DNA of 64,000 nucleotides, from sequence record JN254800.1; one strand, 5' to 3'. The notes under the pieces were generated by a model. It saw only the letters and a list, made by a program, of their open reading frames with translations. It was not told the DNA's origin and did no database searches. This stretch comes from Pseudomonas phage NH-4. This document shows positions 3,231 to 59,664 of this stretch, piece by piece. How positions within the stretch are numbered: the first letter of the stretch is position 1; each line of letters starts with the position of its first letter. The position numbers were made by a program, and so were the translations under genes.

Positions 3231-3818
3231 TTACGGGATGGAGGGGATTTGAAACTCTGCGCCGCCGAGAACATCAATGACGACTTCCCAGAGCGTCGGA
3301 ACAGACCACTGGTAACGGTCGAAGTCGGTTTCAGGATCGACGCCCAGCGTCACATAGGAAGTGGCAGGCCATTTATGAACACTGCCTTTCCGCATGAGAG
3401 TCGCCACGCGGCCGTCACCGAGCGGATTCGTCCTGTGCGGAACGTACGCAGACATCGAATATTGCTGCCCGGCGTCGACAACAAATCTTTGCCTCTGGCG
3501 CAGACATACAGAGCCCACAGGATTCCAGCCGCGACCGCCGCAAGACTGGCGAGCCGAAGAATGCTCATAACCTTCGTGAGTCATTTCGCCGAGGCAAGCC
3601 GAGCGATCCTCGTAATAGTTGATGTTCTCCATCGATCCAACCAGCACCAGAGACTCGAAATCGAATCGATGATCGTGGATGGCCGAGTGGTTGAAGCAAA
3701 GCCGACGCGGCAGCTCCGGGTGCCAAACATGGAGGCGACCGGCCGGAAGTTGGACCTGAATGAACCCCAGGCCGTGCAGAGTGATCTTGTCCTTCATCGG
3801 GTCATGGACGGTGCTCAT
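3231..3818 (-). CDS. hypothetical His-rich protein (195 aa), possible metal-binding fold
   Basis: Motifs HVWHPEL and HDHRFDFES. RBS GAGGA lies 5 nt before the ATG. No confident family. Confidence 0.5.
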   Translation of the reverse strand: MSTVHDPMKDKITLHGLGFIQVQLPAGRLHVWHPELPRRLCFNHSAIHDHRFDFESLVLVGSMENINYYEDRSACLGEMTHEGYEHSSARQSCGGRGWNPVGSVCLRQRQRFVVDAGQQYSMSAYVPHRTNPLGDGRVATLMRKGSVHKWPATSYVTLGVDPETDFDRYQWSVPTLWEVVIDVLGGAEFQIPSIP

Positions 3819-3919
3819 GGATAATCCTCAGTAGCAGAAATGTATTGTGAGAGTTACGATTGATAAGCCGGTCGCCCATAGAAGGGCGAACCAGGCCATG
3901 GCTTTGATGGTCGTGTAGA

Positions 3920-5303: not shown

Positions 5304-5551
5304 GTTCACCTCAGAAAGGATAATCGTCTGAGACTCCAGGAAGCTCGACGATTATTGTTGAGCCTGATCGGTCTAGAATGCATCCGACCGAGCCAGCCCT
5401 GTGTGGATAGGGTCTACACGAACTATAACAGGTGACTTCCCTGACTATTCGCCAGGTCGATCCTCCACACCATCTGCAAATTGGCGGGCGCTTCGACTTC
5501 AGTTTTCGTTCGTCCAGGACGGCGCGTCTGTCGCAGGAAAGGCAGCGTGCC

Positions 5552-10157: not shown

Positions 10158-10364
10158 ATGCCGTTAGTTCATGGCACTTCCAATGAGGCTCGTTCTGAAA
10201 ACATCAAGCGGGAGATCGAAGCCGGTAAAGACCCAAAGCAGGCTGCGGCCATCGCTTACTCCATCCAGCGCAGTGAGAAAGGGAAGACGGCGAAAGATTG
10301 TTCGCCTGAGCTCGTTGCCGATCTTCGCGCCCTGGTGGACGCTCTGTCGAGGCTCGTGAAATGA
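10158..10364 (+). CDS. small hypothetical protein (68 aa), moron-like position
   Basis: RBS TAGGAG 7 nt before the ATG. No similarity recognised. Confidence 0.45.
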
Positions 10365-10501
10365 ACCGCAAGACATGCCGGCGCCGACTCGTGGTCGATG
10401 TAATCAGGGCCAATATTCACGGCGGATTCTTCAGCCTGAAGTTTGCCGCCATCGATTTGGCAATCATCGGCGTCGCCATCTTGATGACTTTTGGCCGATA
10501 A
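10361..10501 (+). CDS. possible small membrane protein (46 aa)
   Basis: ATG overlaps the upstream TGA. C-terminal hydrophobic [15 protein letters not shown]. Below the ORF-track length cutoff. Confidence 0.25.
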
Positions 10502-10544
10502 TGCTGAGAAAATCTGGATTCTGACTAAAAATTCTAGTCCGGAT

Positions 10545-10880
10545 AGCCGCAAGTTACCGTTTACGGAAAATAGCAGTAATTTGGAAAGCCTACTGCCGCG
10601 AGGCTTTAACAGAGCTAGTTCCTAATTTCCGATTTAGCCGCGTGCTTCAAAAGTATATAGCCTGGGAAATTAGAAGTAACGTTCCAATAGAATTCATCTA
10701 TAAGTAACGTTATAATATAACGTCAATCTATATGCTCTAGACGTATTGAAATTCAATTTTTAATTGGTAAATTGGTAATTTGGATTAGTTTAGGAGTTGA
10801 AAGTCTCGCGGCAGTAGGCTTAGACAAATCCCGTAAAGTTTCCGAGACCAAATTACCGGATTTTCGCGGCTGAGGAAACT
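10545..10880. repeat. AT-rich non-coding cassette copy 1: 17-bp perfect inverted repeats (10586-10602 / 10805-10821) flanking a palindrome-rich AT core
   Basis: AAGCCTACTGCCGCGAG and its reverse complement lie 202 bp apart. The internal palindrome ACGTTATA-A-TATAACGT is at 10707-10723. Homologous to 56370-56720. Confidence 0.7.
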
Positions 10881-10959
10881 GGTAATTAGATCATAATATA
10901 AATTATAATGTAAGTTAACAGTCGCGGCTACATCTAATTATTGTTCCGCTTATTTACCC

Positions 10960-10995
10960 TTAGATGTACTGCGTATATAATACAGCCATAGTCCA
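10960..10995 (+). promoter_or_regulatory. sigma70-like promoter for scaffold/capsid genes (TTTACC N17 TATAAT)
   Basis: ATTTACCCTTAGATGTACTGCGTATATAAT lies about 25 nt upstream of ATG 11014. Confidence 0.4.
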
Positions 10996-11013
10996 CGACT
11001 CTTCGAATTAACG

Positions 11014-12447
11014 ATGACAAAGTCGAAAAGAAAAATTGACGAAAATGGATATATGACCATCGAGGGCTGCCCGATCAGCTCTTATGGCGTTTTCCAGTAT
11101 TCTGCTGGTCAACTCGGTCTTCCGGGCGATCCGACGCGGATTGTCAACGTATATCGCCCGGAGTCTGCCGTCAGCGATCCTGAGTACATCGAATCTCTGA
11201 AGAATCTCCCGTTGATCGACGAGCACGAAATGCTGTCGGGATTCGACGACGATGACGACAGCGTGGCCCCCGAAGACAAAGGGGTGGAGGGCATCATCAC
11301 CTCCAACGCTTACTACGAAGCCCCATGGGCTCGCGGCGATATCCGCATCTATTCCCGCAACATGCAGAATCAGCTGGAAAGGGGCAAAGAAGACCTGTCC
11401 CTAGGCTATAGTTGCCGCTACACTGAGCAACCCGGCATCTGGAACGGGACGCCTTATGAAGTCGTCCAGGACAAGATGCGCGGCAACCACATCGCCCTGG
11501 TAAAAGAGGGTCGTGTGCCGGGGGCCAGAGTATTGGATGGTCTGTGTTTTGACCATCTCAGTTTTGATTTCAGACCATCCGATGAGGGTAATGAAATGAG
11601 TCTCAAGAAAGCCAAGCGGAAGCCCCCTGTCCAGCGCGTAGGGCAAGCTGCTGACTCGGCGGTCGAAGAGTTGCGCACCCTGTGGCCGAAACTCTCTGCG
11701 TCTGTCCAGAAGTTCCTGGGCGAAGAAGAGCAGGAGCCGGAGCATCAGGAAGGCGCCGCTCCGGCCGAACCGACCGACAGCGAGCACCTGACCGAGCATC
11801 CGACTCTGGAAGGCGCCCAGAAGGACGACGAAGAGCAGGAAGAGGAGCCTTCCGTTGTCGATCCGGCCGTGGCCGCCGTCGAGCCGGAGCATCAAGAAAG
11901 CGCCGCATCCGAAATGTCCGGTGAAGGCGAAGTCGCCGAACTGATCTCTCAGGTCAAAGCCATTCTGGCTCGACTGGAGGGAACGGTAGCCGAAGGGGCA
12001 GACGAAGAGCATGGCGAAGGTCAAGATGTCGTCGAGGGTTTGGAGGAGCAGAGCAGCCTCAGCGGCTCGCAAACCGCCAGCGACGATGGTGGTGAGAGCA
12101 AGGATAACAGCGAGGAACTTCCTGAAATGGCACAGAAGAACGCGCAAGATGCTGCAATTCGCGGTCTCTATCGCGACATTGCTGCTAAAGATCGCCTCTA
12201 CAAGCGTCTTAGCTCCGTGGTTGGTGCGTTCGATCACCGAGCTATGGACTCGGCTGAAGTCGCTGTTTACGGCGTGAAAAAGCTGAACATCAGCTGCGCG
12301 AAGGGCCAGGAAGCTCTGGCGCTCGACATGTACCTGAAAGGCGTCGAAGCCTCGCGCGGCGCGGCCAGCCGTCAATCGAAAGCCCAGGATTCGGCCGGTT
12401 CTGCTCCGCAGTGCGCCGAGCTGGACAGCTACCTGAAGGGGGAGTAA
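11014..12447 (+). CDS. scaffolding protein with N-terminal DUF2213-like domain (possible prohead protease/scaffold)
   Basis: The N-terminal 190 aa are globular. An acidic E/Q/P-rich low-complexity middle is followed by a C-terminal helical region. Located between the Mu-F-like gene and the capsid gene. Confidence 0.55.
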   Translation: MTKSKRKIDENGYMTIEGCPISSYGVFQYSAGQLGLPGDPTRIVNVYRPESAVSDPEYIESLKNLPLIDEHEMLSGFDDDDDSVAPEDKGVEGIITSNAYYEAPWARGDIRIYSRNMQNQLERGKEDLSLGYSCRYTEQPGIWNGTPYEVVQDKMRGNHIALVKEGRVPGARVLDGLCFDHLSFDFRPSDEGNEMSLKKAKRKPPVQRVGQAADSAVEELRTLWPKLSASVQKFLGEEEQEPEHQEGAAPAEPTDSEHLTEHPTLEGAQKDDEEQEEEPSVVDPAVAAVEPEHQESAASEMSGEGEVAELISQVKAILARLEGTVAEGADEEHGEGQDVVEGLEEQSSLSGSQTASDDGGESKDNSEELPEMAQKNAQDAAIRGLYRDIAAKDRLYKRLSSVVGAFDHRAMDSAEVAVYGVKKLNISCAKGQEALALDMYLKGVEASRGAASRQSKAQDSAGSAPQCAELDSYLKGE

Positions 12448-50784: not shown

Positions 50785-50875
50785 GCTTTACCTCTGCGCA
50801 GGAAGAGTATACTATCAGCTGACTCGCCAAAGCGAGCGAATTTAATCCAACTTTACTTCGGCAGGAAAGTGGCCG
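50785..50875 (+). promoter_or_regulatory. tandem sigma70-like promoters for + strand replication block (GCTTTACC N17 TATACT; CTTTACTT N17 GATACT)
   Basis: The same TTTAC(C/T) -35 element as the early promoters. Located 50-140 nt upstream of ATG 50925. Confidence 0.45.
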
Positions 50876-50924
50876 ATACTAGCGCCGCCGCCTGTACTGC
50901 CCTCCAAAACAGAGGATACATTAA

Positions 50925-51710
50925 ATGCAAGAATGCAAGATTTACCGCGACCAACTCCCGGTCGGTAACCCGAATCCCAATGTCGACAAGACCCGCGACC
51001 CGAACCTTAAGCCCGGTTTCCTGCGTCGCAGTCGCGAGCTGGACCCGGCGCTGGCCGTTCGCATCCGTCGCGAGCTGATCCACGCCGAAGCATCCGACTT
51101 GGCCAAGGCCGGATGGGTCAATTCACAGTCCAGCCTTTATGGATCGAAAGCCTTCCCGCGCCATTCCGTCGTTCGCGTGACCGGAGTTCCGGAAGATGGA
51201 GCTTTCATCGGCATGCTGATCGGCTTCATCGAGCATCGCGAGCATGGCGAATGGGCGGTCATGGAAGCCGGAACGAAAGAAGGCGGCGCCGTCATTATTC
51301 CAGTCGATCACATCATGCGAGCGTCATTCGCCGAAGCCGAAGAGTTCTCTGAAAAGTGGGAGCGGAACCTGGGATGGCGTCTGCTGCGCCAGCTCCGCGA
51401 GTGCGGCGCCCTTGCCGGGACTGAAGACGAGTTTCTGCGGCGGATCATCAATCGATACGTTCGTGATCGCACGATCCTCGATCACCACAAAGTCGGCGCG
51501 GACAAAATCTACACTGATGCAGTGCTCAAAAGCATCGGCGAAACATGGCCGAAGATTCCTTCGGGGAAATTCGTCGGACACCGAGTCGCGCAGCTCCTGA
51601 TCGGCCACAAGCTAGGTCGAGCGGGGACCATCCTGAATGACCTGGTGGACTTCTTGGAGAAGTTCGCGGCCGGGCGCGATAAAGTTCTCAACATCGCCAT
51701 CTGTAATTGA
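50925..51710 (+). CDS. hypothetical protein (261 aa)
   Basis: RBS AGAGGA. Confidence 0.5.
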   Translation: MQECKIYRDQLPVGNPNPNVDKTRDPNLKPGFLRRSRELDPALAVRIRRELIHAEASDLAKAGWVNSQSSLYGSKAFPRHSVVRVTGVPEDGAFIGMLIGFIEHREHGEWAVMEAGTKEGGAVIIPVDHIMRASFAEAEEFSEKWERNLGWRLLRQLRECGALAGTEDEFLRRIINRYVRDRTILDHHKVGADKIYTDAVLKSIGETWPKIPSGKFVGHRVAQLLIGHKLGRAGTILNDLVDFLEKFAAGRDKVLNIAICN

Positions 51711-52970: not shown

Positions 52971-54043
52971 AGCCTCACGAAATAAGACTGGCACAGGCCG
53001 AAGAGTTCCTGCGCGAACTCGGCCGAGGGATTCCGGACGACGAACGGGTAATGGTCGGCTACGCTGAAGAGGCCACAGTCCAAACCGACGAGAACGGCCG
53101 CAAGCTCAACGCCGGCTGGTGGCCCGTGCCCTGGAAGGAAGGCAAGTACATCAATTCCAGATCCAACGCATATGCCTGTATCTCGTCGTCCATCAAGACG
53201 CCCAACCCGAAGACCGGCCAGATGCGATACTGGCGCGGCGAGGCCTCTTTCGGCCACGGCCTGGCGTTAATGGTCGATGACATCGGCTCCGGCAAAGGGT
53301 CCAAGGGCGACTTCGACCGCGACGAGTTCCGCGAGCGCCTAGAGCCGACCGCGATTGTGGAGACTTCGCCGAACAACTACCAGTTCTGGTATTTCTTCAA
53401 AGAGCCGATGTCCCACATGCTCCAGTTCAAGGCGCTGCTCTATTCGTTCGTGGACCAGGTGCTAAAGAAAGGCGGCGACAACACCGTCAAGGACGTCAGC
53501 CGTTACGGCCGGATGCCATTCGGCTTCAACAACAAGCGCGGGGAAGACGGCAAGTTCAAATATGCCGACGAAAACGGCAAGCCCGAACTCGTGCGACTGT
53601 TCAGTGCCGACTATTCCAAGCGCTACTCGCCAGAAGAGATCGCCCAGGCATTCGGCGTCCGCATCATCATGCCACAGATGAAGAAGGTGGAGATAAACCG
53701 CGACGATTGGTTGTATGACCAAGTATGGTTGAAGTATGCCGAGCACATCTGCACGAAATACAAGATGGGAGAAGCGGCAGGCGGCCAGGTCCAGCAGAAT
53801 ATGTCCGGCAAATACCGCATCCGCTGTCCCTGGGGCGACGAGCACACCAACGGCGATCCTTTCGGCGCATACTTTCGCGGACCGATACCTGGCGCCGAGC
53901 ACGAATATGTGTTCGGATGCGGGCACGATACTTGCCGCAAAGAGCATCGACGGACATGGGCGGCCTTCACCGATGAAGTCGTCCTGCCCTATATCGTAGA
54001 ACAATTGGAACGCATTAACCGCCGTCACATCGGTGAGGAGTAG
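52967..54043 (+). CDS. archaeo-eukaryotic primase (AEP/Prim-Pol) domain protein with C-terminal zinc-binding region
   Basis: hhhDhD motif LMVDDIGSG and sxH-like SPNNYQFWYFF, with C-terminal CPWGDEH...CGHDTC. Confidence 0.6.
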   Translation: MKPHEIRLAQAEEFLRELGRGIPDDERVMVGYAEEATVQTDENGRKLNAGWWPVPWKEGKYINSRSNAYACISSSIKTPNPKTGQMRYWRGEASFGHGLALMVDDIGSGKGSKGDFDRDEFRERLEPTAIVETSPNNYQFWYFFKEPMSHMLQFKALLYSFVDQVLKKGGDNTVKDVSRYGRMPFGFNNKRGEDGKFKYADENGKPELVRLFSADYSKRYSPEEIAQAFGVRIIMPQMKKVEINRDDWLYDQVWLKYAEHICTKYKMGEAAGGQVQQNMSGKYRIRCPWGDEHTNGDPFGAYFRGPIPGAEHEYVFGCGHDTCRKEHRRTWAAFTDEVVLPYIVEQLERINRRHIGEE

Positions 54044-54048
54044 ACAAT

Positions 54049-54234
54049 ATGCAAAACGATCCTGGAATCCTGATCACAGCCATTGGCTTGCTGTTCCTCG
54101 GCCTTATCATCTTCTTCGAAGGCCTAAAGGGGTGGAAAATACAAGTCGCAAACTTCCTCGCGTCGCTTCTGTGCTTTTTCTTCGGCCTTTCTGCTTTGAC
54201 GTTCTGGTTCGTCGTTGCGTTTGACGTATTTTAA
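54049..54234 (+). CDS. small 2-TM membrane protein (61 aa)
   Basis: GAGGAG 8 nt upstream. ILITAIGLLFLGLIIFF and FLASLLCFFFGLSALTFWFVVAF. Confidence 0.4.
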   Translation: MQNDPGILITAIGLLFLGLIIFFEGLKGWKIQVANFLASLLCFFFGLSALTFWFVVAFDVF

Positions 54235-54381
54235 TCGACGAACGGTACAGAAATTTTCGGATGGGGACGGAACTTATTAGCTATGCCGGTTTAGGTAGGA
54301 GATAATAGCCGTCCCTTTCGCCTCAATATGTAGAGGCAATGTTGAATCCGATCATGTAAAGCAGAAGGCGGCAAACCTAAC

Positions 54382-56121
54382 ATGATTATCGACGAAGATA
54401 ATATTTTTGATGATGGCGAATCAGGGTCCAGTGAGTTTGATCTCACACAGATAGAAGATGCTGGAATGGACCCTTTGATGACCGCCGCGAGCAAGGCGGC
54501 CGATGATGCGATTGCGAGGAATGAGACGTACCGAGCACAAAAGGCGGCAAAGTATGCCGAGGCGTATGCGGAACCAGATCTGAAGAAGCGAGCGCGATTG
54601 TTGATGCTCGATCAGGCCTTTGATCTTCCGGTCAGCCGGCTGGTGAAAGGACCGTTCGACGACTTCATCACAAAGTACAGCTCTACTTCAGACAGCAACT
54701 ACCTCGCGGTCTATGATACTTTGTTCTGTAAGGGCGACGGAACTGTCCCACACCCGCACTTCGACGAGTTTCGCGGCCGGCTGGTGGACCATCGCGGCGT
54801 GGCGTTCAACAACAAGACCCTCGATCCGATTGACCTGATGGGCGCCCTCGCGGCTGCGGCCTTGGACGATCCCTCGATTAAGAAGACGATTGAGACTTGC
54901 TGCGTTTGGGCGCGTCGATATCGCCGCAACTCGCTGATCGAGACGTTTGAGAAGAAGATACCGGATTGGGACGGCGAAGAGCGGATCGAAACGCTGCTGA
55001 TCGACTTGTTCAAACCGTTCGACACCGAGCTTAACCGGATGGTGAGCAAGTATTTCTGGCTGAGCTTGTACTGCCGCATCAACTACCCTGGAATCTCGGC
55101 GCCGATTTCGTTGGCGTTGATTGGTGGGCAGGATGCGGGGAAATCATATTTCGGCTTGCTGATCTGTAAGGAACTGTCCGGTGGGCGCGATCTGGCTCCA
55201 GTTCAGCTCGACCTGAGCCGACACGACCAGACGCCGTTCCTGCGCAACATCACCGGCAACTCGGTTATTGCGAACGTCGGCGAAATGTCCGGCTTCAAAA
55301 AGGGCGACATGGAACGCATCAAAGAATTCCTGGTGCGATCTTCGGATACATTCGATCAGAAGTTTGAGCCTGGCGAAACGATCAAGCGACAATGGATCAC
55401 CATCATGGACGGCAACGGATACGATGGACTCCAGCGGGACGACTCCGGCAACCGTCGATTCTATCCGATGTTCGTGGCACAACTTCCCGACGAAGATGGA
55501 AAGCCGAACTGGGTTAAGCCGGGCGATGGTAATGAACCGTTCAAGGTGGACTTCACCGACTTCGGCCGCAAATTCTGGCAAGCGATGGCTGAATGCCGCG
55601 CATGGATCGAAGAGCATGGTGTCGATGGATACCTGGATATGGTGTCGGAAGCGAACCGCGAAGTGCAGAAGTTCTCTATTTCGGAAATGGAGAATGCGCG
55701 TGGCGTGGTTCGTGATGACACGATTGATATGTATCTGATCAACGTGCTGATCAGTTGCGAGTTCGAAGAGATCAAGCCTGGCAGGAATTCAAAGAATCCT
55801 GGATGGAGAGTTGACACTGTAGCCATTCTGAAATGGTTCGATATTCTCGCCAGGAAGAAGCCGATTTCTCGCCACTTAACTCCGCACCTGAAGGCGCTGG
55901 GGTTCGTCCCGAACAAGAACGGCCTGGCTGGTTGGTGCCTGCCCGTCGATAAGGTTGCGCCTGGATGGACGAATAGTATGCAAACCACGCTGCCGCCGTT
56001 CAATGATGCGCTTGTGTACTTGCTGAGGAAGGGCGACCCGGATATCACTGATGAGGCCGCCATGGCAAAGATTCGGGCAGTCCGGGCCGAGCGAGCCAAG
56101 ATTTTGGGCGAGGATTTCTGA
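54382..56121 (+). CDS. D5-like SF3 helicase (phage/plasmid primase C-terminal helicase, P-loop NTPase)
   Basis: Walker A IGGQDAGKS. 579 aa following the AEP primase gene. Confidence 0.6.
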   Translation: MIIDEDNIFDDGESGSSEFDLTQIEDAGMDPLMTAASKAADDAIARNETYRAQKAAKYAEAYAEPDLKKRARLLMLDQAFDLPVSRLVKGPFDDFITKYSSTSDSNYLAVYDTLFCKGDGTVPHPHFDEFRGRLVDHRGVAFNNKTLDPIDLMGALAAAALDDPSIKKTIETCCVWARRYRRNSLIETFEKKIPDWDGEERIETLLIDLFKPFDTELNRMVSKYFWLSLYCRINYPGISAPISLALIGGQDAGKSYFGLLICKELSGGRDLAPVQLDLSRHDQTPFLRNITGNSVIANVGEMSGFKKGDMERIKEFLVRSSDTFDQKFEPGETIKRQWITIMDGNGYDGLQRDDSGNRRFYPMFVAQLPDEDGKPNWVKPGDGNEPFKVDFTDFGRKFWQAMAECRAWIEEHGVDGYLDMVSEANREVQKFSISEMENARGVVRDDTIDMYLINVLISCEFEEIKPGRNSKNPGWRVDTVAILKWFDILARKKPISRHLTPHLKALGFVPNKNGLAGWCLPVDKVAPGWTNSMQTTLPPFNDALVYLLRKGDPDITDEAAMAKIRAVRAERAKILGEDF

Positions 56122-56144
56122 TGTAGTGGTTGAGTGTACTTGGA

Positions 56145-56178
56145 CTAGGCCGCCTTCGGGCGGTCTTTTCTTTGGTGC
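56145..56178 (+). terminator. rho-independent terminator after helicase gene
   Basis: ggccgcc-ttcg-ggcggtc hairpin followed by TTTTCTTTGG. Confidence 0.65.
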
Positions 56179-56369
56179 GGCGTACATTAGATTCCGGCGT
56201 TGGGCGGGATTGGTAGAAGTGAATACAGTAATTTGGACCAGTTTCGAGCGCGAAAATGGAAAGTCGATAGATTTTCGGTATCGGTTTAGCGTGTATGGTG
56301 GATGGATTTTGCGTGAAATGTTGAGAAATTGCGTGTTTGAGGTGGACTTTTCGTGGGAAATAGCCGCAA

Positions 56370-56720
56370 ATTACTGTATAGCGATTCTGAGCGGTAATTT
56401 GGGAAGCCTACTGCCGCGTGGGTTAGCGGGCCAATTTCCTAATTTCCGGTTTTTCGAGCATGGGTTAAAACTATTCTACAGCGAAAATCGATTGCACAAT
56501 CCTAATAGAAAAAATCTATCACGGACGTTACCTATCTTTAAAATTAATAAAATTAATAGTAATTTGGTAATTTGGTAAACTTTAGTATTTGAAAGCCTCG
56601 CGGCACTAAGCTTGTACATATCCCGTCAAGTTTCCGATTCCAGCTAGCTCGCGGCAGGGTCGCCGGAAACTTCCGGACTTACAATCCATGGGTCGCGGCA
56701 ACACCACGGCGGACTAAGCG
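56370..56720. repeat. AT-rich non-coding cassette copy 2 (homologous to 10545-10880) with imperfect inverted 17-mers (56404-56420 / 56597-56613)
   Basis: Shares left block GTAATTTGG.AAGCCTACTGCCGCG.GG...TTCCTAATTTCCG and right block TGGTAATTTGG...TTGAAAG.CTCGCGGCA.TA.GCTT...ATCCCGT.AAGTTTCCGA with copy 1. Confidence 0.65.
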
Positions 56721-56794
56721 GCAAGTGCCAAAACTCGACGAACGGAACCGGAAATTTGGGAGCGCGACAGAATAGCTCAGCTGGACATATTTCT

Positions 56795-56975
56795 AACATT
56801 CGATTTAACACTCAATCCAAACACTCACCACCATCGTCTCCCACCAACAGCCGACTCGACCCTCACCCACCAGCAGACCGCCCATATAACATCCTATAAC
56901 ACCACCTAACACTCATTCACCATCAAACCCACCCAGACCTACAGCCCACCCACAAGCAGCCCATAGACGCGATCC
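56795..56975 (+). other. G-depleted C/A-rich tract (about 5% G, about 40% C) in leader of TerS-like gene
   Basis: Counted composition: 1-7 G per 60 nt between 56821 and 56940. Non-coding, with stops in all frames. Confidence 0.7.
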
Positions 56976-57090
56976 CTGGCCCCATAGTACAATCGCGCCA
57001 TACTCAGTGTCGCGGCAGAGCACCAGGGGCCATCCGCCAACCAAGCCACCACGACGACTCCAGAATCGAACTCCAGGGACGCAGCAACAA

Positions 57091-57663
57091 ATGACCGCCA
57101 AATTCTACAGCCCCGACGATTTAGTCACGCCACAGGAATTCGCAGACCCGCATTTCGCGGCGATCAACCAAAAGCGATTCGACCTGTACATCGACCTGCG
57201 CGTCCAAGGTTACAGCTCCTGGCGGGTCTTCCGGGCCATCTGGGGCGAGGAGCATATGGACGGTCCCGCGCAGGCCCGCATCTTCGCGATGGAGTCCAAC
57301 CCGTACTATCGCAAGCAGTTCAAGGCCAAGTTGAACGCGACCAAAACGTCCGATTTGTGGAATCCAAAGACGGCGCTCCACGAACTCCTCCAGATGGTTC
57401 GTGACCCCACCGTCAAGGACTCCAGCCGTCTGTCGGCCATCAAGGAATTGAACGTTTTGGCTGAAATCACGTTCGTGGACGAGTCGGGCAAGACCAGGAT
57501 CGGTCGCGGCCTGGCCGACTTCTACGCATCAGAAGCCGAGGCTCAGACCGCGACCGTCGCTGCCGCGGCCGAAGCCAATGGCTATGTTCCGGAAGGCGAA
57601 GAGGGCGATTTCCCGTCCCCGACGCCGGAACCGACCGAGGAAGATCGCGCCAACCCCATTTAG
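57091..57663 (+). CDS. HTH DNA-binding protein, terminase small subunit-like
   Basis: N-terminus LVTPQEFADPHF...LRVQGYSS...AQARIFAMESNPYYRKQFKAKL resembles the TerS HTH (LTPKQE..F...Y...AGYS) pattern. Acidic C-terminus. Confidence 0.35.
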   Translation: MTAKFYSPDDLVTPQEFADPHFAAINQKRFDLYIDLRVQGYSSWRVFRAIWGEEHMDGPAQARIFAMESNPYYRKQFKAKLNATKTSDLWNPKTALHELLQMVRDPTVKDSSRLSAIKELNVLAEITFVDESGKTRIGRGLADFYASEAEAQTATVAAAAEANGYVPEGEEGDFPSPTPEPTEEDRANPI

Positions 57664-59352: not shown

Positions 59353-59664
59353 TCAATAAGGCTGCTTGTTGTATTCGACCAGAGACATACCGGCCGGAAC
59401 TTTGAAGCGTATGTATTCGATCATCATCGCAGTGCGACGCCGATTCGTGCCAGACTCGTCGTTGACGAATAGTTCGCACTGGTGCGGAATGACTCGCGTC
59501 ACCAGGCCTTCGCCTTTCGAGCCGTAGAACTTGATGTAGGCCGCGACGCCTCGCGTCATGTTCAGATGGATCGTTTCGCAGAGTCGCTGCGCGGCCGACG
59601 CGCTGGACAGATCAGTCGGGCTGACCGTCACCCAGTAATGTGCGTTTTGTTCTTTATCGGACAT
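59353..59664 (-). CDS. hypothetical protein (103 aa)
   Basis: ORF in the - strand early block. Confidence 0.45.
   Translation of the reverse strand: MSDKEQNAHYWVTVSPTDLSSASAAQRLCETIHLNMTRGVAAYIKFYGSKGEGLVTRVIPHQCELFVNDESGTNRRRTAMMIEYIRFKVPAGMSLVEYNKQPY

Follow-up and report, generated by a model that had tools for sequence, protein, structure and literature searches.

A probable packaging-initiation region upstream of the small terminase gene of Pseudomonas phage NH-4, and its paralogous twin

A 64,000-nucleotide stretch of the genome of Pseudomonas phage NH-4 (JN254800.1; hereafter the window) carries two diverged copies of an AT-rich, repeat-flanked cassette, and the present analysis concerns the second of these, at 56370-56720 (copy 2). 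We consider it highly probable that copy 2 is a packaging-initiation (pac-type) region, overlapping P040, one of two promoters of the small terminase gene terS. A fixed virion DNA end, a pac fragment of about 15 kb and adjacency to terS, three features of the pac class, all point there. For relatives with a direct terminal repeat (DTR), the evidence is best read as placing one boundary of that repeat in this same architecture. A first-pass annotation had taken copy 2 for the stronger of two candidate replication origins, a view opposed by nucleotide skew, the absence of DnaA boxes from the cassettes, the DNA end at 56488/56489, the adjacency to terS and the genome ends of relatives.

Between 54000 and 58000 the window matches many PB1-like Pseudomonas aeruginosa myoviruses (genus Pbunavirus, genomes of about 66 kb) at 97 % identity. 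Copy 2 sits in a 970 bp non-coding interval, with a primase-helicase gene on its left, where the first-pass annotation had also placed it, and a 190-aa gene on its right. Its features are as follows (a slash marks the cut).

56181-56480: flank to the left of the cut, recombinant and mosaic, with three or more haplotypes among Pbunaviruses
56370-56720: cassette copy 2, a diverged second copy of the cassette at 10540-10860
56391-56449: left block, with GGTAATTTGG (56393-56402), the left inverted arm (56404-56424) and TAATTTCCGG
56450-56564: AT-rich core, GC 0.28, with the packaging-initiation cut at 56488/56489 (AAAAT/CGATTG)
56565-56637: right block, with a second GGTAATTTGG, the right inverted arm (56593-56613, containing TCGCGGCA) and CCCGTCAAGTTTCCGA
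56598-56723, + strand: GCGGCW array right of the cut, with copies at 56600, 56651, 56695 and 56718; candidate terminase (TerS) recognition repeats
57091-57663, + strand: small terminase subunit gene (terS), 190 aa; phmmer match to PDB 7UXE 'Small terminase', E = 6e-125

The virion DNA end and the direction of packaging

The position of the cut comes from published experiments and from the sequence records themselves. When the cassette was used as query, several GenBank records proved to start or stop inside it. The record of phage Ab29 stops at ...CGAAAAT (...CTACAGCGAAAAT) and begins with CGATTGCAC... (CGATTGCACAATCC...), which corresponds to window 56488/56489; for phages Ab27-29, nucleotide 1 had been set at reads having a fixed end (Essoh 2015). 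At least four unrelated records begin about 605 bp ahead of terS. Independently, in phage JG024, 36 of the 161 nanopore reads longer than 30 kb begin at 59,376 ± 5, coverage dips at 50-60 kb, just upstream of that position, and digestion with XbaI gives an extra band of about 15 kb, findings from which Ipoutcha et al. proposed a pac site at 59,376 (PMC10913387). This nucleotide is the C of AAAAT/CGATT, window 56489, and is identical to the Ab29 end. For SCUT-S1, PhageTerm placed the pac site 'in an AT-rich region' (PMC6521218), and the same program gave headful packaging from a pac site for PB10 and PA19. Circular permutation with terminal redundancy is backed by circular assemblies, overlapping PCR and PhageTerm, and an older PB1 paper disagrees.

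The XbaI band also gives the direction of packaging. The window has XbaI sites at 5372, 10736, 24089, 25797, 26151 and 36062; on the assumption of a genome of about 66.2 kb with no XbaI site in the approximately 2 kb outside the window, the pac fragment should measure 15.1 kb if packaging runs rightward and 20.4 kb if it runs leftward. The published band of about 15 kb matches the former, so packaging proceeds rightward, terS-first. The terS gene starts 602 bp right of the cut. Its structural match, PDB 7UXE, is the TerS of phage E217, a decamer of 10 chains, and the same gene is annotated as terS in phage Banzai.

The pac coordinate is already published (JG024 59,376; Ab27-29 nucleotide 1; SCUT-S1), and the 'putative pac site' of Pbunavirus in those reports is the same nucleotide position as the cut that we infer for copy 2. 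The accessible portions of the published pac papers give the coordinate only, to which the arms, the motifs, the overlap with P040, the twin cassette and the conservation across genera are added here. In the literature searched, which does not include two key papers, we found no description of the pac anatomy, of the overlap with a terS promoter, of a recombination boundary at the cut, of the twin or of conservation across genera.

These results bear directly on the idea of a replication origin, in which the AT-rich core would act as an unwinding element and the GGTAATTTGG and GCGGCW repeats as iterons for the primase-helicase, possibly besides a role in packaging, and in which the cassettes would together make up a two-site origin of the kind seen in P4 (ori/crr) and SPP1 (oriL/oriR). 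The core is indeed AT-rich and flanked by repeats, the two copies share motifs, and the order of primase then cassette is retained in Pbunavirus, in P. syringae phage tabernarius and in Serratia phage MyoSmar; the authors of the SCUT-S1 study also speculated that their site might be an origin (PMC6521218). However, the repeats are few and mirror-oriented and would fit a cleavage site equally well; virion ends, a pac fragment and terS adjacency are predictions of a pac site and not of an origin, and the DTR ends of two distant relatives, MyoSmar and E. coli phage WFC, lie in the equivalent cassette. An exact DnaA box (TTATCCACA) is absent from the window, and none of its 12 one-mismatch matches falls in a cassette. 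DnaA boxes are not obligatory for phages with an initiator of their own. The cumulative GC skew has minima near 41 kb and 51 kb and does not turn at either cassette, and the minima likewise lie away from the cassettes in 40 Pbunaviruses according to the Banzai paper (PMC12390725). The literature searched contains no replication data. Origin function is disfavoured, the arguments left for it (AT-rich core, repeats and helicase adjacency) being circumstantial, and we judge it unlikely.

The skew minima, at about 41000 and about 50800-51000, coincide with strand switches of the replication-gene block, and the second is a divergent promoter region that corresponds to P036/P037/P038 of phage 14-1. 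The skew-based origin candidates are these two places, as has also been proposed for Banzai (PMC12390725), and not the cassettes.

Cassette anatomy, recombination and transcription of terS

That 56370-56720 is a genuine second copy of the cassette, as the first-pass annotation stated, was borne out by blastn of copy 2 against the window, which aligned it to copy 1 (about 10543-10845) with 67 % identity over 306 nt (E = 5e-20). The left block shares 48 of 60 positions (80 %) with 10573-10632 and the right block 60 of 73 (82 %) with 10773-10845. The AT-rich cores, 115 nt in copy 2 and 140 nt in copy 1, are 56 % identical, and their GC contents are 0.28 and 0.30, respectively, against 0.556 for the whole window. 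The inverted 17-mers are complementary at 17/17 positions in copy 1 (10586-10602 / 10805-10821) and at 14/17 in copy 2 (56404-56420 / 56597-56613), the latter a recount that agrees with the earlier figure; allowing up to three mismatches, the 17-mer occurs five times, against 0.15 expected. Over longer arms copy 1 is complementary at 21 of 22 positions (10586-10607 / 10800-10821) and copy 2 at only 15-19 of 22, with a fixed T:T mismatch. The motif GGTAATTTGG, with at most one mismatch, occurs nine times against 2.0 expected, a count reached in 0 of 100 shuffles, and all nine occurrences are located in or beside the two cassettes. The left arm of copy 2 holds a bottom-strand GCGGCW at 56412-56417. 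To the left of the cassette lies a perfect 13 nt inverted repeat, 56223-56235 / 56367-56379 (ATACAGTAATTTG / CAAATTACTGTAT), which holds an extra GTAATTTG motif and is restricted to the haplotype of the window and JG024.

Conservation was profiled in an alignment of 14 Pbunavirus genomes; IMG/VR contributed only six further loci for each anchor gene. Mean pairwise identity is 0.56-0.81 left of the cut and 0.98-0.99 from 56481 onward, the step at the cut itself, among 12 distinct sequences, being from 0.56-0.75 to 0.98-0.99, and no non-coding stretch of the region is better conserved than the core of copy 2. The switch in identity at 56481 means that a recombination boundary coincides with the packaging cut, which suggests that pac-generated ends drive recombination. 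Across the left-flank haplotypes only short motifs and the left arm are retained, the most divergent haplotype (Ab29, KT28, LBL3 and SN) having kept GGTAATT(T/A)GG, the arm and TAATT(T/A)CCGG. The Ab29-type left arm (CTTAGTGCCGCG) is the mirror of the right arm (CGCGGCACTAAG), whereas in the haplotype of the window the left arm of copy 2 is the copy 1 version (CCTACTGCCGCG), which probably came by conversion from copy 1. As the Ab29-type copy 2 sequence 'GCCGCAAAAGTATA' matches the E79-type copy 1, segments seem to have passed between the two copies in different lineages. Within the genus, conservation of copy 1 is uniform (0.87-1.0), and in the E79/Moody lineage both its arms carry mirrored changes (left G to A, right C to T); the symmetry of the arms is thus either under selection or maintained by conversion.

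In phiMoody (KT254131) the copy 2 region contains a degenerate duplication of about 150 bp with an N, spanning the left block and the cut site. The duplication is missing from the closest metagenomic relatives and is probably an assembly artefact from the pile-up of read ends at the packaging cut.

The transcription features around copy 2 are the following, with transcription start sites (TSSs) from the supplementary TSS table of the ONT-cappable-seq study of phage 14-1.

54382-56121, + strand: primase-helicase gene (D5/PriRep1-like); PHROG 4630 'DNA primase', E = 0, plus helicase families
56147-56176, + strand: intrinsic terminator of the primase operon; hairpin 56147-56166 plus T-run, by terminator scan
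56543-56593, + strand: promoter P040 for terS; TTAATA-GTAATTTGGTAATTTGG-TA(A/T)ACT, TSS at about 56592/3
56790-56960, + strand: C/A-rich, G-poor tract in the P040 leader, between both terS promoters; G 7 %, C 44 %
56964-57000, + strand: second terS promoter P041; TAGACG-18-TACAAT by promoter scan, TSS at about 57000

The 50 nt upstream sequence of P040 (14-1 TSS 59399, +) corresponds to window 56543-56592 at 49 of 50 positions, and that of P041 (14-1 TSS 59807, +) to 56951-57000 at 50 of 50, from which it follows that transcription from P040 begins within the cassette, where the right arm starts. The transcripts from both promoters cover gp76, which is terS (TU045 covers gp76). The tandem GTAATTTGG motif (GTAATTTGGTAATTTGG) is the 17 bp spacer of P040, between TTAATA and TA(A/T)ACT, and TCGCGGCA stands just downstream of both TSSs, at about +6 to +13 of P040 and +10 to +17 of P041. 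The primase-helicase gene, annotated in Banzai as a 'putative self-loading helicase', ends ahead of a terminator that is identical in sequence to the JG024 ORF77 terminator (PMC3008698), is also annotated in LMA2 and phiKT28, and shields copy 2 from upstream transcription.

The C/A-rich tract (170 nt) is well conserved across the aligned Pbunavirus genomes, and in the IMG/VR genome U705 an extra 36 nt insertion in repetitive C/A-rich sequence lies near its left edge (about 56832). The tract looks like a Rho-utilisation (rut) site, and a site of this predicted kind could attenuate P040 transcripts ahead of terS.

The arms might be thought to act in RNA, by pairing within a transcript to give, say, a stem processed by RNase III or a non-coding RNA. 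The symmetry of the arms fits DNA-level symmetry or RNA pairing alike, and the near-perfect arms of copy 1, together with the compensatory double change in the E79/Moody lineage, would suit such an RNA. This change would, however, be expected just as much if the arms were symmetric protein sites or underwent gene conversion with each other, the arms of copy 2 are complementary at only 15-19 of 22 positions and have a fixed T:T mismatch, and Rfam 15 gave no match at E <= 1 for 56100-57150 or 10300-11050. The transcription data argue against RNA for copy 2: the sole TSS is at the right arm, so the left arm lies outside the RNA, and a terminator stands upstream, which leads us to reject arm pairing there. 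We regard a structured RNA as very improbable.

The twin cassette and its equivalents in other genera

Copy 1, the twin of copy 2, lies at the other end of the window, ahead of the head genes.

10540-10860: twin cassette (copy 1), layout as copy 2, arms 10586-10607 / 10800-10821
10953-10988, + strand: sigma70 promoter P014 of the head protease/scaffold/capsid operon; TTTACC-17-TATAAT (10953-10981)
11014-12447, + strand: head maturation protease gene, downstream neighbour of the twin; PHROG 3778, E = 8e-228

P014 is about 130 bp right of the twin. The twin itself has no TSS on either strand in 14-1 (none between 9247 and 13257), and the equivalents of the promoter hexamers of copy 2 are altered there (TAGTAT to TAGGAG, TA(A/T)ACT to ATTAGT). 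A promoter in copy 1 predicted by the annotators of JG024 and LMA2 was accordingly discarded. No record breaks at copy 1 in 60 sampled rows, 293 of 297 records cover at least 80 % of it in a single place, and no paper in the literature searched reports DNA ends there. The XbaI site at 10736 is about 50-70 bp from the point of copy 1 equivalent to the cut, so that the published digest could not reveal a cut at that place. The core of copy 1 has elements without counterpart in copy 2: a 22 nt direct repeat (TAGAAGTAACGTT... / TATAAGTAACGTT..., at 10671 and 10699), followed by the XbaI site, and a perfect palindrome, ACGTTATA-A-TATAACGT (10707-10723), part of a 17 nt insertion relative to copy 2. 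These copy 1-specific elements (10671-10723) could form an operator particular to the twin.

Homologues of TerS with 39-45 % identity are found in phages of P. syringae, E. coli, Serratia and others. E. coli phage WFC has a DTR of 3784 bp, and its nucleotide 1 lies in an AT-rich core, mid-way between 27 nt inverted arms and about 360 bp upstream of terS. In MyoSmar the DTR boundary called by PhageTerm (3559) falls between 26 nt, 92 %-complementary arms (...GCGCCGCAGCTGGG / CCCAGTCGCGGCGC...) located between primase and terS, while the primase-terS gap of tabernarius holds six copies of ATAGTCA (0.27 expected) and nested inverted arms whose cores are GCCGCGC/GCGCGGC. The equivalent locus adjoins terS in all three phages, in the same order as in Pbunavirus. 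Over seven cassettes from four genera, GCGGCW is on the top strand in 20 of 20 copies right of the centre and on the bottom strand in 12 of 12 left of it (32/32 mirrored), at a density 2.2-5.6 times the genomic background despite the AT-richness of the cassettes.

The other terminal-repeat boundary of WFC is in a 610 bp non-coding gap (3251-3861) without similarity to the cassette, so the two boundaries are marked by different sequences; this gap has direct repeats of its own (CGCGTAAGTCGTTGTTTTATA twice, and CAATCATTAGC(T/C)TTCGAAT twice). In tabernarius a small Cys-rich ORF (open reading frame), gp88 (2258-2488; CRFC...C...C), stands between cassette and terS. It has no Pbunavirus counterpart and might be an accessory DNA-binding protein.

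WFC and MyoSmar also have a second, paralogous cassette, in a 420-460 bp gap directly upstream of the head maturation protease gene, so that a twin in this place is present in three genera (Pbunavirus and those of WFC and MyoSmar). Both cassettes of WFC share a motif of their own, GGATGATACG, with eight matches against 1.4 expected, only at the two loci; both cassettes of MyoSmar share TACTTTTCGTTTTTT, and blastn between them gives E = 7.5e-12. A near-consensus sigma70 promoter follows in both phages. The protease-side site of tabernarius has only a small hairpin, GGCGCGGCA-N16-TGCCGCGC. Conserved in three genera and co-evolving with the cut copy, the twin very probably binds the same factor.

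It is conceivable, though in our estimate rather unlikely, that both cassettes are transcription-control modules, binding a phage or host regulator that times P040/P041 and P014, and that copy 2 is cut for other reasons. A near-consensus sigma70 promoter of a late gene follows each cassette within about 60-350 bp in three genera, P040 lies in copy 2 and has the tandem motif for a spacer, and the JG024 and LMA2 annotators predicted promoters in copy 1. Against this, the twin has no TSS on either strand in 14-1, a consensus scan puts the strong sigma70 promoters outside the cassettes, and neither the genome end between the arms in three genera nor the mirror symmetry of GCGGCW about the cut would be explained. 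Such a module is compatible with packaging initiation if the regulator is TerS.

Two further readings, a selfish element resembling a miniature inverted-repeat transposable element (MITE) with terminal inverted repeats, and a real protein-coding gene (JG024 ORF78 / PHROG 18478), are together scarcely credible. Two copies with inverted arms might suggest a MITE, but homology between the copies runs well beyond both arms and the cassettes occupy two fixed syntenic sites in three genera, for which reason we reject it; the cassettes also carry genus-specific sequence at these syntenic sites. In favour of a gene, several records have a coding sequence (CDS) annotated over the cassette, and a PHROG family exists. 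In the window an ORF at 56051-56578 is present, which begins within the primase-helicase gene and crosses its terminator hairpin. An ATG-initiated ORF of at least 40 aa is missing at the interval in 5 of the 14 Pbunavirus genomes, and the others differ in frame, length and stop. The 175-aa form of the window rests on a 1 nt indel that fuses the ORF to a frame begun inside the primase gene; every other genome has 4-14 stops in that frame, and the indel lengths are not divisible by three. Curated annotation of LMA2 and of SN places no gene in the interval, and a Pfam search of neighbouring small ORFs gave no match. The first-pass annotation had called this ORF probably spurious on the ground that it crosses the cassette and the terminator, and with no conserved open frame among the 14 genomes we concur and reject a protein-coding gene. 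The CDS calls over the pac cassette are mutually inconsistent (JG024 ORF78, E79 CDS 53984-54496, Banzai_078 and small CDSs in Epa15), and PHROG 18478 was built from calls of this kind; all are best regarded as spurious, propagated false gene calls.

A model for packaging initiation and its comparison with known systems

We propose a model in which the terminase assembles on concatemeric DNA at motifs mirrored around the AT-rich core, namely the GCGGCW repeats, the 17-22 nt inverted arms carrying them and the genus-specific GGTAATTTGG repeats, presumably via the helix-turn-helix ring of decameric TerS. TerL would then make the series-initiating cut at 56488/56489, the position given by published end mapping, and the DNA would be packaged rightward, terS-first, by a headful mechanism, in the direction indicated by the fragment size. 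Because the tandem GTAATTTGG is the spacer of P040, and TCGCGGCA lies just past the starts of P040 and P041, occupancy of the site probably throttles terS transcription too. The recognition by TerS of mirrored GCGGCW, arms and short repeats, and the feedback on terS, are predictions from sequence. Copy 1 would be an uncut paralogue sharing the same trans-acting factor(s).

Several points weigh against this account. PhageTerm gave no significant peaks for phage Banzai (PMC12390725), and the original PB1 paper, as cited in later work, put fixed ends elsewhere, about 7.5 kb away. For JG024 a 270 bp DTR was proposed by PhageTerm, and refuted by Sanger sequencing (PMC10913387). The spacing between the 14-1 TSS and the candidate -10 hexamers is somewhat short or long, which leaves the exact promoter elements uncertain by a few nt, and the TerS recognition motifs are putative in all these phages. 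Lastly, a packaging site pure and simple offers no explanation for an apparently never-cut paralogue kept upstream of the head genes in three genera.

The main candidate roles of the twin are TerS-dependent control of the head operon and that of a synapsis partner for packaging initiation. We tentatively raise the possibility that the packaging signal is a two-site one, with one terminase-bound cassette cut upstream of terS and an uncut twin directly before the head-assembly operon. Through the twin, TerS could match the expression of head genes to the capacity for packaging, or else the twin would license the first cut as synapsis partner; the arrangement would have survived the switch between headful and DTR packaging while its genus-specific motifs co-evolved.

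Few Pseudomonas phages are used in therapy as widely as Pbunaviruses, which are now being rebuilt synthetically, and the position of the cut and the DNA to be kept intact matter both for their engineering and for judging the risk of transduction. DNA recognition by small terminases is a long-standing open problem; for the TerS of E217, the structure of which is solved (7UXE), the literature searched, again with two key papers outside it, holds no description of a DNA target. Our analysis supplies candidate targets in the mirrored GCGGCW arrays, the 17-22 nt arms and the GGTAATTTGG repeats, with the twin as a natural uncut control. Packaging appears to begin in one and the same cassette architecture whether a relative is of the headful or the terminal-repeat type, and this, together with the twin conserved before the head genes, suggests an unrecognized link between packaging initiation and the control of head genes.

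Among known systems, the two-site origins P4 ori/crr and SPP1 oriL/oriR, defined by replication assays, share with the cassettes the arrangement of two dispersed repeat-plus-AT-rich modules near or next to a primase-helicase or initiator gene. Unlike copy 2, they are not sites of virion DNA ends, and here the ends, the pac fragment and the terS adjacency point to packaging. Phage T4 has a pac-like pair in genes 16 and 19, and in Black's synapsis model the two homologous sites are reportedly proposed to be jointly bound by the small terminase. This resembles the two cassettes in that two homologous, terminase-related sites per genome lie near packaging or head genes. The T4 sites are of about 24 bp, within coding sequence and about 3 kb apart, whereas the present cassettes are of about 350 bp, intergenic and 20/46 kb apart, and only one is cut.

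The pac site of P1 and the cosB site of λ resemble copy 2 in their clustered repeats beside the cleavage point: short recognition elements are grouped on one or both sides of it, with an AT-rich or bendable segment between. P1 uses Dam-methylated hexamers, and in λ the R sites and IHF act on just one side of cosN; neither is known to have long inverted arms or a second copy before the head genes. A further parallel is the pac region of the Bacillus phage SPP1 (pacL-pacC-pacR), like copy 2 a bipartite packaging signal at the 5′ side of terS. In SPP1 as in Pbunavirus packaging is headful and only a fraction of events begin at pac (36/161 of the long JG024 reads). Unlike in SPP1, the flanks of the Pbunavirus site are mirror images, with inverted arms (17-27 nt) and GCGGCW arrays that face opposite ways, terS and terL are unlinked, there is a paralogous twin that is not cut, and recognition by TerS is a prediction.

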